From: Patescibacteria group bacterium
Lineage (GTDB): Bacteria; Patescibacteriota; Patescibacteriia; GWA2-46-9
Assembly (NCBI GenBank): GCA_041675205.1
Contig: JBAYUF010000002.1
Coordinates: 134,568 to 187,081, forward strand
DNA: 52,514 nucleotides
Direction: 5' to 3'
Below are positions 44,527 to 52,514 of this stretch, piece after piece. The translations under genes were made by a program, and so were the position numbers. The notes beneath the pieces were generated by a model. It did no database searches. It had not been told where the DNA came from and saw only the letters and a program-made list of their open reading frames with translations. Numbering within the stretch: position 1 is the stretch's first letter; every line of letters begins with the position of its first letter.

Positions 44527-44648
44527 TGCTGCGGGACTACTGACCTCACTTATTTTACCTATCCAAAACCAAGTTTGACTTGGTGGTGTCCCGCCGCTGC
44601 GGGACTACTGTCAGTATAAACATTTTGAAAAATCAAAATGACCACTAA
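44527..44648 (-). repeat. tRNA-Leu(TAA) 3' trailer units (one complete, one truncated)
   Basis: Minus strand: ...TTGATTTTTCAAAATGTTTATACTGACAGTAGTCCCGCAGCGGCGGGACACCACCA, then ...TCAGTAGTCCCGCAGCA truncated. Confidence 0.8.
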
Positions 44649-45129: not shown

Positions 45130-45407
45130 CCGTTATCTAGCACCGTTGTCACGGCACTAAAGTTATTAGACTTTTCCGCTATGGTAGCCCCCCGTTGGGA
45201 CTACTGTCGTCGTTTATCTTTTGTCTCCGTCAAAAGTTTCACTATGGTAGCACCGTTGTCACGGCACTCCCGTCCTTGCATTTTCTATCACTATGGTAGC
45301 ACCGTTACTACGGCACTAAAGTCATTAGATTCTTTCCGTTATGGTAGCCCCGCTGCTGCGGGACTACTGATATCACTTATCTTTTGTCTTCGTCAAAAGT
45401 TTCACTA
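45130..45407 (-). repeat. Tandem array of five hairpin units behind tRNA-Met, four ending in GCTACCA
   Basis: Plus-strand anchors atggtagc at ~45181, 45244, 45293 and 45341, with a degenerate fifth unit at ~45135. Confidence 0.9.
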
Positions 45408-46748: not shown

Positions 46749-47028
46749 AAAGCGGAACTTTTGACGGAGACAAAAGATAAATGATGATGGTGTCCCGCGT
46801 AGGCGGGACTCCAAGGAATTCAATCTTTGATTTTTCAAAATGTTTACGATGACAGTAGTCCCGCAGCAGCGGGGCTCCAACAGAGCCGAGTTTTTTACCA
46901 CGACAAAAGATAAATGATGATGGTGTCCCGCGTAGGCGGGACTCCAAAGAGTTAATTTTTCAAAATGTTTAGGATTTCAGTAGTCCCGCGTAGGCGGGAC
47001 TCCAGGGAACTTTTGACGGAGACAAAGG
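46749..47028 (+). repeat. Tandem array of four hairpin units (plus a partial fifth) behind tRNA-Gly, each ending in CTCCA
   Basis: Unit ends at ~46813, 46879, 46946 and 47004; two module types alternate. Confidence 0.9.
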
Positions 47029-50589: not shown

Positions 50590-51105
50590 ATGGCTGAAGA
50601 AGAAGTAGAGAAAACTGAAGAGGTGCCAGTTGCCCCTTCTGAAGAACCAAAAGAAGCAGCTACAGCCCCAGAGATGGCGGCTGAGGTGCCTGCTGAAACT
50701 GTTGAAGCCGAGCCAGCAGAGGCGACGGCTGAAGAAGTTGTGGCTGTCAGTGAGGCTGCCGTGGTGAGTGTTGGCCCAGTGTACCCAGAAGTAGTGCCGG
50801 GTGCTCTCGTGCGGGTACACCAACGAATTCGGGAAGTTACGCCAAAGGGCGAAGAGAAAGAGCGTGTACAGATTTTCGAAGGTACGGTCATAGGTCGGAA
50901 GCATGGCTCAGAAGCCGGTGCCACTATTACCGTTCGCAAAATCTCAAATGGCGTTGGTGTTGAAAAGATTTTCCCACTGCACTTACCAACCATCGACAAG
51001 ATTGAAGTGAAGAAGCTCTACCGAGTGCGTCGAGCAAAGCTTGGTTATCTCCGAACATCAAAGAAGCGAATTAAGGAAGTGAAGAAGGTTACTGCTGCGG
51101 CGTAA
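50590..51105 (+). CDS. rplS: 50S ribosomal protein L19 with acidic N-terminal extension
   Basis: [35 protein letters not shown]. Confidence 0.95.
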
Positions 51106-51149: not shown

Positions 51150-51236
51150 GCGCGGGTGGCGGAATTGGTATACGCGCTAGCTTGAGGGGCTAGTGGGAGC
51201 AATCCCATGGAGGTTCGAGTCCTCTCCCGCGCACCA
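51150..51236 (+). tRNA. tRNA-Leu(GAG)
   Basis: GCGCGGG/CCCGCGC acceptor, loop TTGAGGG, long variable arm, encoded CCA. Confidence 0.97.
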
Positions 51237-51670
51237 AAAAAAATTGCTGACTTTGCGTCAGCTATTTTTTTTGGTGAAGGCAAGGAAGGACTCGAACCTG
51301 GGAAAGGGGTCGGGAAAACGGAAGTTTTCCCGCAGCGGAATTATTCAAACCGAGGGGTTTGAAAGAGGAGCTTTGGCGACGAGGGTTCTAGGAGCGAAGC
51401 GACGGAGTCCTCTCCCGCGCACCAGTAATGTATATAACGATAGTAGTCCCGAAATAGCGGGGCACCAAAAAAAATTGCTGACTTTGCGTCAGTGATTTTT
51501 TTTGGTGAAGACAAGGAAGGACTCGAACCTGGGGAAGGGGTTCCGCCAGAGGCGGACAGACGGGGAGCGGAGAAGTTTCTCTGCGGCGGAATCTCGCCCG
51601 CAACACCAGTGCGTAGCACTGCCGGCAGGTATTCTCCTCCAAGGGCGGATCCTCCTTTGGTGGAAAACCG
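51237..51670 (+). repeat. Composite tRNA-Leu(GAG) trailer: inverted and direct copies of the tRNA 3' half plus palindromic modules
   Basis: Antisense T-arm 51288-51299; 20-nt direct repeat 51405-51424; ~78-nt duplication 51231-51309 / 51462-51540. Confidence 0.88.
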
Positions 51671-51920
51671 AACAATGATAATGGATATAAAAGAGAAGTC
51701 CGCCGCGGTGGACAACAAAGGCTATATTTCGGCTATATTCTTAGCCAGCGCATCAGTTTTTTATTATGATGGTGTCCTAATGTGTACAATATTAGTAGTC
51801 CCTATTTTAGGGGGGCATCAGCGATATTCTATCAATATATAGTTTGACTAAATGTTAAAAATATAGTATGCTAGCTCTGATTTTAACAGACTTGTTTTAC
51901 TAGAAATCGTTATTTTCAAA

Positions 51921-52514
51921 GTGGAAAAAAGTCATACAAAGGTAACTTGGGCTACTAAAAAAGTCACAAAAAAATGTGCTGCTTTTTATTTAGATTGTAT
52001 TAAATTGTCGGTTCTTTCTCCTTTTGAACATTTCACGGTAAACAAAGATTTTCCTAAAAGATTTTTTGCTTCGGCTGCAATTTGTGGCCTACTTCTGTAC
52101 ACGATTTTGCCATACGGCCAAGTTGCCGCCGCCGCCTCTACGTTTACGCAAACAAACTGGGCGGGCGGAGTAACAGCAAATAGCGCAGTACATGCATCTA
52201 ATCAAACAGGCTGGACGGAATACAGTGTAAAAGACGCAGCACTATCGATTGTGAATGGAGGCGCTGATTTGCAGCTCGGCGTTACCTCGCAATCGCTTAC
52301 CCAGACGAGCGATGCAAATGCGGCTACCGGATTTAACCTTACAGGAAGCGCACATACCCAGACCGAAGTTACGGGCGCCGGGAGCTCGGCATCCATTATT
52401 TTGAATACGGTTGCTGACGCTGCTACCACGACTGTTGCGGCAGGCAATGCACATTCGTGCGCACTGCGTGCTGACGGCACGGTCTTTTGCTGGGGTATGA
52501 ACTATTACGGCCAG
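51921..52514 (+). CDS. Secreted/surface protein with RCC1-type repeat (runs off the window end)
   Basis: Frame open from 51867 to the end; signal peptide ..GLLLYTILPYGQVAAAA-STF; AAGNAHSCALRADGTVFCWGMNYYGQ RCC1 motif. The start codon is uncertain (GTG 51921 or TTG 52005); TTGACT-17-TATGCT promoter at ~51844-51872. Confidence 0.75.
   Translation, partial: MEKSHTKVTWATKKVTKKCAAFYLDCIKLSVLSPFEHFTVNKDFPKRFFASAAICGLLLYTILPYGQVAAAASTFTQTNWAGGVTANSAVHASNQTGWTEYSVKDAALSIVNGGADLQLGVTSQSLTQTSDANAATGFNLTGSAHTQTEVTGAGSSASIILNTVADAATTTVAAGNAHSCALRADGTVFCWGMNYYGQ

Follow-up and report, generated by a model that had tools for sequence, protein, structure and literature searches.

The tRNA-linked repeats (TLRs) of Escherichia coli have gone unexplained since 1978. 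Each contains an 18–19 nt copy of the 3' end of the stable RNA encoded upstream, no function for them is accepted, and three are small RNAs (sRNAs) situated between two terminators (PMC8144298). Here, we examined a 52,514 nt stretch of a Patescibacteria group bacterium genome (GenBank assembly GCA_041675205.1, contig JBAYUF010000002.1, positions 134,568 to 187,081), called the window below, in which two units of a single element family, arranged in tandem, make up the trailer of the tRNA-Leu(GAG) gene. Unit 1 (51237–51424) is intact and unit 2 (51468–51756) is decayed. Members of the family follow a common plan: a terminator and a spacer, a 10–15 nt inverted repeat (IR), an approximately 85 nt conserved core with two covarying hairpins, and a direct repeat (DR) of the gene end. 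We consider it probable that the trailer is a stack of two miniature integrative cassettes that encode no protein, are widespread in Patescibacteria and carry a replacement gene end. Like the E. coli TLRs (the 178 bp rttR repeats of tyrT/tyrV, and those of rrA, rrB and rrF behind 5S rRNA), the cassette can sit directly behind a stable-RNA gene, can be tandem and can have a terminator on either side, and the copy of the upstream 3' end that characterises TLRs is present in the Leu cassette, where 51405–51424 is identical to 51217–51236 at all 20 positions. TLRs are not known outside the operons of tRNAs and rRNAs, whereas the Patescibacteria family is also found at the ends of protein genes and has a core that is conserved across the class.

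Integrative elements that target tRNA genes and gene ends, and the remnants of such elements that lack an integrase (cis-mobilizable elements, CIMEs), share further features with the cassette. In both, DRs of the target flank the insert, the block of identity starts in the T-loop, the gene receives a replacement end and tandem arrays occur; the combination of flanking target DRs with an element-borne end that restores the gene, by which integrative elements are recognised, is found in the cassette. The cassette differs from these elements in being about 150–250 nt long, in having neither integrase nor cargo, in its conserved folded core, in an inverted target copy that lies across the junction, and in the use of one core at many unrelated targets.

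Phage CTX, one of the Xer-dependent IMEX elements, integrates through a folded single-stranded attP: two inverted target-like sites, approximately 90–130 nt apart, pair with each other, and the resulting stem resembles the site in the chromosome. The integrated form reads target-left, cargo, inverted copy, spacer and hybrid site, the target is regenerated, and arrays form. For CTX, as for the attC sites of integrons, recombination is performed by a host tyrosine recombinase or by one that acts in trans. The cassette also has a predicted stem, formed by IR and DR, that mimics the target across the junction, with a mean of −16.6 kcal/mol for the IR and its own right arm versus −11.8 kcal/mol for mismatched partners (p = 3e-21). 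However, its targets are tRNA T-loops and gene ends rather than one dif-like site, the sequence of its stem changes with each host gene, and it has a conserved multi-hairpin core in place of a variable loop. The GTTRRRY of integron attC is absent, the junctions of different copies share no 7-mer, and the tyrosine recombinases counted were Xer-like ones only. A third point of comparison is provided by guide RNAs, namely the internal guide sequence of group I introns, the exon-binding sites of group II introns and the bridge RNA of IS110 elements. As in the cassette, a structured scaffold is flanked by a short sequence that can pair with the intact target on both sides of the point of insertion. 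Unlike them, the cassette has no intron or ribozyme match in Rfam, occurs in genomes of which many lack reverse transcriptase (RT) and, among the element-rich ones, 13 of 14 lack the IS110 transposase, and is accompanied by a duplication of 12–89 nt of target.

The tRNA-Leu(GAG) trailer

The host gene, tRNA-Leu(GAG), was located by ARAGORN at 51150–51236 and scores 53.6 bits against Rfam RF00005, for which the gathering score is 29. Its last 20 nt (51217–51236), which run from G57 of the T-loop to the CCA, constitute the proximal direct repeat, DR_A. Terminator 1 (51237–51272) follows and consists of an A-run (51237–51243), a stem-loop (51246–51262) and a T-run (51265–51272). It scores as an intrinsic terminator on both strands, with 8 T after the stem, and is given no strand; the other features listed here are on the plus strand. 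CACCAAAAAAAATTGCTGAC and GTCAGCTATTTTTTTTGGTG are the 20 nt arms of a palindrome (51232–51276) and are 95% complementary. A spacer, GGTGAAGGCAAGGA (51273–51286), leads from terminator 1 to IR1 (51287–51299; AGGACTCGAACCT), which is the exact 13 nt reverse complement of 51211–51223 in the T-arm of the host. IR1 spans the left edge of the DR, with 6 nt to the left of it and 7 nt inside, and adjoins the core. Spacer and IR1 occur for a second time in unit 2, at 51504–51517 and 51518–51530, respectively, and with up to one mismatch the IR1 13-mer is found four times in the window against an expectation of 0.03.

The conserved core of unit 1 (51300–51384) was matched with 102.6 bits by a covariance model (CM R1; see below). 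From left to right it comprises GGGAAAGGGG, hairpin HP1 (51311–51332, with a GGAA loop), GCGGAATTA, HP2 (51344–51363), AGAGGAG, the small and variable HP3 (51370–51377) and CGACGAGG. A linker (51385–51404), delimited by alignment of copies, contains GTTCTAG, a GCGAAGC mini-hairpin (51394–51400) and GACG; it is a feature of tRNA-hosted copies and is not present in those hosted by protein genes. GGGTTC (51383–51388) is able to pair with GAACCT of IR1. Unit 1 ends with DR_B (51405–51424; GAGTCCTCTCCCGCGCACCA), the exact 20 nt copy of DR_A. Because of the family rule for DRs and a comparison of filled and empty tRNA-Gly sites, both described below, DR_B is read as the older tRNA 3' end, now displaced. 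We infer that terminator 1 was brought in by the element, as near-identical cores have different terminators at different loci and the native terminator is distal to the element in the same tRNA-Gly comparison.

A 43 nt module (51425–51467) sits after the CCA of DR_B; unit 1 carries no such module at the corresponding position. It includes a GTAG-type hairpin (GTCCCG AAATAG CGGGGC), ends in GCACCA, and belongs to a second family, similar to repetitive extragenic palindromic (REP) elements, that likewise ends in the host discriminator and CCA. While GTAG and the hairpin are both present, no Y1_Tnp was found in this genome. The left part of unit 2 (51468–51530) is 95% identical to that of unit 1 and holds terminator 2 (stem 51478–51492, T-run 51496–51503), the spacer and IR2 (51518–51530). 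Over its full 80 nt, the repeated trailer segment (51231–51310 and 51462–51541) is 95% identical. The decayed core of unit 2 (51531–51743) was recognised by a partial nhmmer match and by alignment to unit 1 and two tRNA-Ile copies. It has been enlarged by nested insertions of hairpins of the TCCGCC...GGCGGA type, e.g. at 51541–51556 and 51699–51712, and its distal part aligns to the end of the tRNA-Ile copies. DR_C (51744–51756; GCCAGCGCATCAG) repeats the tRNA 3' end for a third time, in worn form, and a second GTAG-hairpin module, decayed and ending in GGCATCA, is found at 51778–51820.

An earlier sequence-only reading of this locus had drawn attention to the palindrome around a ctgac/gtcag hairpin, to an antisense T-arm copy at 51288–51299 (in fact 13 nt, from 51287), to the recurrence of 51217–51236 at 51405–51424, and to the module ending in GCACCA with the repeated trailer after it. 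All four observations are exact and well beyond chance.

The orthologous Leu(GAG) locus of the relative G004, which like the window has rplS upstream, also contains two tandem units. Its distal repeat reads CCCGCATCAG, and CATCAG replaces CACCA in the distal copies of both G004 and the window. No element was found at Leu(GAG) in G002, a member of the same genus as G004 in which the contig ends 76 nt past the tRNA and the flank is not alignable, or behind tRNA-Leu in G001 and G003, where the tRNA-Leu context is different. Tandem units with worn distal copies fit serial insertion at a regenerated target, with the older copies distal.

The sequence-only reading had also proposed a maturation switch, in which the antisense arm of a read-through transcript captures the T-arm and the 3' strand of the acceptor stem and so controls maturation of tRNA-Leu. 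The long hairpin that this calls for is indeed favoured thermodynamically. For read-through RNA (51150–51305) the minimum free energy (MFE) is −77.7 kcal/mol, approximately 21 kcal/mol below that of the cloverleaf plus terminator (−56.8 kcal/mol), and the T-arm:IR pairs have probabilities of 0.93–1.0. In the fold of a 51150–51430 transcript the 5' acceptor strand of the tRNA is predicted to pair with the acceptor strand of DR_B (probability 0.97), and the arm is matched to its locus. However, the arm is behind an 8-T terminator that scores on both strands, and by the time it is transcribed the tRNA has already folded. Protein genes of opposite orientation have this layout at their 5' ends; there IR and mRNA are of one sense, no such switch could form, and an antisense-RNA role is therefore not general. 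Many tRNAs of the same genome have no element, and decayed tandem copies speak for accumulation rather than regulation. A switch would be a very unlikely general explanation for the arm, and, as far as comparison of sequences goes, the behaviour of the family at protein genes shows the long hairpin to be a by-product of the arm and not its purpose.

Distribution and anatomy of the family

When the 330 nt behind each of the 49 tRNAs of this 1.15 Mb genome were compared, the same layout was seen after tRNA-Glu(CTC), tRNA-Ile(TAT), tRNA-Trp and tRNA-Gln(TTG), always in the order terminator, antisense T-arm, conserved stretch (GGGAAAGGGG...CGACGAGG) and copy of the tRNA's own 3' end. An orphan copy is on contig 4, and almost all T-loop motifs outside tRNA genes are antisense arms of these elements. 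The element was also found, including at protein-gene ends, in relatives from the same family and in another family. CM R1, which was built from 17 aligned cores, has matches in 34 of 401 genomes of the class, at 1–10 copies each and patchily distributed over approximately 15 families, and an exact-pattern scan of 185,579 species genomes returned at least 120 loci. Among the matches listed, all are metagenome-assembled genomes of the Patescibacteria/Parcubacteria type; the few with other phylum labels were taken as binning labels. The element encodes no protein and is approximately 190 bases long. Searches of Rfam 15 yielded no credible match to the core in the window region (E up to 10) or at 20 diverse loci (E up to 0.01), and a limited literature search, which is not proof of undescribed status, found no description of the family. 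It thus appears to be undescribed in Rfam and in the literature searched.

Rules for the anatomy of the element were drawn from 158 unique copies. For 97 of these, a tRNA on the same strand ends less than 200 nt upstream, and 18 amino-acid identities are represented. One copy is behind an antisense tRNA, and the remaining copies are at the ends of pyrG, rplK, lepA, fusA and rnhA, in the orientation expected at the DNA level. In the tRNA-hosted copies, the run of the IR that is complementary to the copy's own tRNA has a median of 11 nt, compared with 5 nt for other tRNAs (p = 1e-39; 97 copies). The locus-matched antisense T-arms that the sequence-only reading had suggested seeking elsewhere are therefore present at other tRNA loci. 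The same antisense 12-mer was not found behind an unmatched tRNA, as tRNA-Ile(TAT), which carries it, also matches it in the T-arm. The IR is 0–2 nt from the core, and its match usually starts 3–8 nt to the left of the DR edge and ends 2–8 nt to the right (75 tRNA hosts and 25 other hosts). The two gene-end copies may differ to the left of the block of identity; in 272 such cases the arm agrees with the intact gene and in 18 with the distal copy, a count that is partly forced by the way the arm was anchored. The DR is variable in length (12–89 nt), and its proximal copy begins 40–120 nt ahead of the core.

In this genome, the cores of the Leu, Glu and Ile copies are 89–94% identical. The Leu and Glu cores share 94% identity, though the corresponding DRs differ at 8 of 20 positions, the arms differ at 4 of 13, and the terminators are unrelated. 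One core subtype was found behind different tRNAs in different genomes. The arms are derived from the host, and the cores are nearly constant between loci. Either the Leu, Glu and Ile cores have been homogenised by gene conversion or the arms have been re-templated from each new host.

Over 82 CM matches, HP1 and HP2 are 98% paired and compensatory changes are seen at 12 of the 15 pairs. The observed covariation values were attained by none of 500 shuffles and in no slid register, for an alignment that was fitted to the CM and is biased toward structure. The strands joining the hairpins are conserved and purine-rich, and loops of the GNRA type are found on the tRNA-sense strand. Conserved joining strands, covarying helices and GNRA-type loops would suit a TLR/RrB-type sRNA gene, expressed through read-through or with a promoter of its own. 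The functional RNA would then consist of the closing stem with the core, the copy of the tRNA end would be a processing or stability signal, and the gene might be mobile as well. Those E. coli TLRs that have a terminator on either side are transcribed and yield processed sRNAs, and the duplicated 3' end has been proposed as the processing signal (PMC8144298). One copy of the Patescibacteria element (locus L032; G175:C2; 1–100, 362–435 and 501–588) is inside an rRNA operon, in the spacer behind the tRNA-Ile(GAT) that follows the 3' end of 16S rRNA, and would be co-transcribed with the rRNA. What an sRNA gene accommodates poorly are the protein-gene hosts with the element at their 5' ends, where the DR is antisense to the coding start and is not a processing signal, and also the length of the DRs, which reach 89 nt, and the divergence between homologous gene ends, neither of which RNA processing would require. 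A promoter scan beside the element in the window revealed none that was convincing. We regard an sRNA gene as a possible but rather unlikely explanation.

A resemblance to TLRs beyond the duplicated 3' end was found at tyrT/tyrV of E. coli K-12 (locus L233; NC_000913, 1286700–1287240), where the direct repeat is 19 nt. Each tyrT unit includes a 10 nt inverted copy, GGGGAAGGAT, of the start of the DR, approximately 90 nt upstream, that closes the unit as a 10 bp stem in the MFE fold; the probability of such an arm arising by chance is approximately 0.004. We found no mention of the inverted arm in the paper on TLRs (PMC8144298). The tyrT repeat shares the IR-core-DR layout with the cassette. 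However, no homology between the cores was detected; the best E value of CM R1 on tyrT is 0.16 and blastn returned nothing in E. coli genomes. At rrB there is a direct repeat but no antisense arm of at least 7 nt and no CM match. What is common to cassette and TLRs appears to be the layout, and homology is not shown.

The alternative that the sequence-only reading had offered to a switch, an element resembling a miniature inverted-repeat transposable element (MITE) that uses the 3' half of the tRNA as its IR, comes near to what was observed. Like MITEs and REP elements, the cassette is small, non-coding, multi-copy, hairpin-forming and patchily distributed, and its arms are copied from the host. 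It is not a classical MITE, as the IRs are not constant for the element but change with the host, the duplication is long and variable (12–89 nt), no cognate transposase is associated with it, and neither Y1_Tnp nor RAYT is present in this genome.

Duplicated gene ends and candidate enzymes

Copies hosted by protein genes reveal how the element is placed. At pyrG, which is in the element's orientation, it is at the 3' end, while at rplK, lepA, fusA and rnhA, which are on the opposite strand, it is at the 5' end. The layout rule is geometric (gene body, terminus, arm, core and displaced terminus) and independent of the direction of transcription. Over 19 residues the two copies of the pyrG end specify an identical protein sequence despite 7 synonymous differences; beyond it their tails differ, and each tail is natural in other genomes. 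Differences between the lepA and rplK copies are also mostly synonymous. As the copies have diverged yet still code, both are genuine gene ends from different lineages, as is the case in elements with a replacement end.

The clearest picture of an insertion was obtained at tRNA-Gly(GCC) of one genus, where three genomes have the cassette and two (G205 and G265) are empty. The terminator that follows DR_B in G172, AAAAAAGACCGCAAGGTCTTTTTT, is the one found directly after tRNA-Gly at the empty locus of G018, which belongs to an outgroup genus, and the T-stem allele of DR_B in G172, CCGC, is that of the tRNA-Gly 3' end in G018. The proximal terminator of G172 is unrelated to the native one, and the allele seen in the inverted arm is that of the proximal copy. 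From the comparison of G172 and G018 we conclude that the native end and its terminator were displaced downstream, and that the proximal end, terminator and arm move together. By extension, the same would have occurred at the window locus.

At tRNA genes, the DRs often continue past the end of the tRNA into the trailer or terminator, and there is no CCA in the DR copy of genes that do not encode one. The copy was therefore not made from a mature tRNA. This bears on the possibility of a retroelement primed by or copied from a tRNA, in which DR_B on the minus strand would be the primer-binding site for the 3' 20 nt of the tRNA. The reverse complement of DR_B is an exact 20 nt sequence of the primer-binding-site kind, starting TGG, and the left edge of the DR is near T-loop position 57/58. 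However, protein genes are also hosts, and RVT_1, which is absent from the high-copy genomes G172, G236 and G342, is not enriched in genomes that have the element (19/34 versus 15/32 that do not). A tRNA-primed retroelement is largely refuted, and we consider it most improbable.

Tandem arrays and diverged replacement ends would also be expected if the repeats were the attL and attR of an integrase-mediated island or prophage integration and the core an attP arm left over once the interior had been deleted, as in a CIME-like scar. The DR extends from the T-loop to the 3' end, as it does for integrases that target the T-loop, a pattern reportedly described by Williams in 2002. Against a scar, no kb-scale cargo or adjacent integrase was seen in approximately 240 copies examined, the core pattern has no match in the viral contigs of IMG/VR, and blastn searches with the IR-core-linker segment found nothing in phage, plasmid or E. 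coli records. Element-rich genomes hold only one tyrosine recombinase, an identical deletion joint would be needed at more than 20 different targets, and compensatory change in the hairpins is a sign of a strand that folds rather than of double-stranded protein-binding sites. An integration scar is thus improbable. A phage attP remnant, also considered, is unsupported as there is no viral, phage or plasmid match.

Profile searches for a mobilising enzyme covered 34 element-positive and 32 element-negative genomes, with IS110, TnpB and Y1 surveyed in 14 element-rich genomes. Tyrosine recombinases (Phage_integrase) number 1–2 per genome in positives and negatives alike, and the one in this genome is Xer-like and encoded at C2:76445–77014. 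Serine recombinases (Resolvase) are present in 22/34 positives and 16/32 negatives. As no integrase, RT or transposase co-occurs with the element, the mechanism is only inferred. Several specific candidates were rejected. The transposase of IS110 bridge-RNA elements (PF01548) is in one of the 14 element-rich genomes and not in this one. TnpB (PF07282), which would point to an omega-RNA with the flank as guide, is in none of the 14, and there is no common motif to the left of the junction. For an IS200/IS605-type element, Y1_Tnp is in 6/14 but not in this genome, and there is no fixed motif beside the target. A convergent tRNA or transfer-messenger RNA (tmRNA) on the minus strand, sharing the terminator, was also discarded; ARAGORN and Rfam detect none, the T-stem is 3 bp, there is no acceptor partner, and the tmRNA is elsewhere.

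Proposed mechanism, related repeats and significance

In the mechanism that we propose, strands would be exchanged where the duplicated block begins on its left side, or close to that point (within the T-loop in the case of tRNAs), and the cassette would enter there. It would supply a replacement gene end and its own terminator, or its own promoter at 5' ends, and the native end would be displaced downstream. The order after integration would be target-left, replacement end and cargo, inverted target copy, approximately 100 nt of spacer, and hybrid site, which is the order that integration of the folded CTX attP leaves behind and is also reminiscent of an attC hairpin. As the intact gene would remain a target, cassettes would accumulate, the most recent one being closest to the gene. 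The stem formed by IR and DR would close the core and place next to it a copy of the target that serves as duplex or guide. The core itself would probably be the handle for a trans-acting enzyme, for which the single Xer-type tyrosine recombinase is the sole candidate present in every genome. The extra complementarity of the arm to the left half of the target would lengthen the stem only after strand exchange, and could favour the product. Alternatively, the arm may work as a guide, like the internal guide sequence of an intron.

A further and more tentative proposal, which we think unlikely at present, is that the cassettes are a new class of guide-bearing, protein-less element. A conserved folded scaffold of DNA or RNA would recruit a housekeeping or other enzyme, IR and DR would programme the site of entry, and the E. 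coli TLRs would be relics of the same kind. Specificity re-templated from the host at each move would explain cores that are 94% identical with arms that differ at 40% of positions.

Several points weigh against reading the trailer as a stack of integrative cassettes with replacement ends. The evidence for movement of a cassette is indirect, and the case for an element-borne proximal copy comes from one clean comparison of filled and empty sites. When the pyrG ends were compared with the C-termini of relatives, both tails proved to be natural variants, and the comparison does not tell a native end from a foreign one. The near-identical cores within a genome could reflect gene conversion rather than recent transposition. 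With its multiple helices and its loops of the GNRA type, the core resembles a functional RNA more closely than it does a simple DNA site, and the wobbles counted in good helices (10 G:T versus 6 A:C) tell neither which strand folds nor whether it does so as RNA or DNA. No motif is evidently shared by the targets, although a sequence-specific recombinase would be expected to need one, and the profile searches of the 34 positive and 32 negative genomes found no dedicated enzyme. It is possible that a housekeeping enzyme or some other protein acts on the element, and also that most copies are relics.

Other repeats were seen in this genome. The REP-like family is represented in the window by modules of 45–70 nt at 44530–44645 (minus strand), 45140–45405 (minus strand) and 46750–47010 (plus strand), behind tRNA-Leu(TAA), tRNA-Met and tRNA-Gly(TCC). 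A GTAG-type hairpin (e.g. GTCCCGCGTAGGCGGGAC) is followed by the host discriminator and CCA, as TCCA (Gly), GCTACCA (Met) or ACCA (Leu), yet the genome contains no Y1_Tnp or RAYT. A repeat of approximately 150 nt (CTTTAAGGAAAACCTCCCGGTTTTCCTTAATATTCCTTTCCCTC...CTCTACGGCC...), found on contigs C1–C4, begins at the discriminator of tRNAs that mostly do not encode CCA; its sites include tRNA-Arg(TCG), His, Phe, Lys(TTT) and Gly(CCC), and at the Ile and Gln loci it follows the distal repeat. Behind tRNA-Ser(GCT), Ser(CGA) and Asn (C1:128400–128650, C2:12800–13090 and C1:200712–201040) there is a different core with the same logic, in which an antisense acceptor strand and T-arm, a long core and a sense copy of the tRNA end are arranged in tandem. 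The elements at tRNA-Leu(CAA) and Ala(CGC) have yet another core (GGAGGGAATCGAATACCACAGG...). Thus, several core types share the IR-core-DR plan.

Two smaller hairpins occur within or near the elements. Those of the TCCGCC-N-GGCGGA type, found in the window at 51541–51556, 51643–51672, 51699–51712 and also 2431–2520, in HP3 of a tRNA-Ile copy and upstream of tRNA-Arg(CCG), behave as a separate insertion family. Hairpin CCGAGTCAGACTCGG is between two copies of CGAAGC in the tRNA-Glu copy (L008) and in the trailers of tRNA-Arg(CCT) and tRNA-Thr(CGT), and looks to have been inserted, with a 6 nt duplication, into the GCGAAGC mini-hairpin. Of the genes flanking the tRNA-Leu(GAG) locus, rplS (50590–51105) encodes an L19 with an acidic, Ala/Glu-rich N-terminal extension of approximately 55–60 residues before the conserved body. 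The open frame downstream (51921–52514) has a signal-anchor-like start and an RCC1-type repeat (...HSCALRADGTVFCWGMNYYGQ) and runs off the end of contig C2.

Patescibacteria have tiny genomes with few recognisable mobile elements. The family described here and its sister families in this genome are found in the trailers of numerous tRNA genes and at the termini of core genes, where they would supply terminators or promoters and record serial insertions. In annotation, copies of the element account for antisense T-arm motifs without a tRNA and for second copies of tRNA 3' ends, which might be mistaken for pseudo-tRNAs or att scars. The likeness in layout to tyrT ties a 45-year-old curiosity to a large family that can be aligned, and so makes the nature of TLRs testable, both comparatively and biochemically. 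If the arms do act as a target mimic or guide, the cassettes would be a compact means of directing recombination to the conserved ends of genes, with no need for an enzyme encoded by the element.

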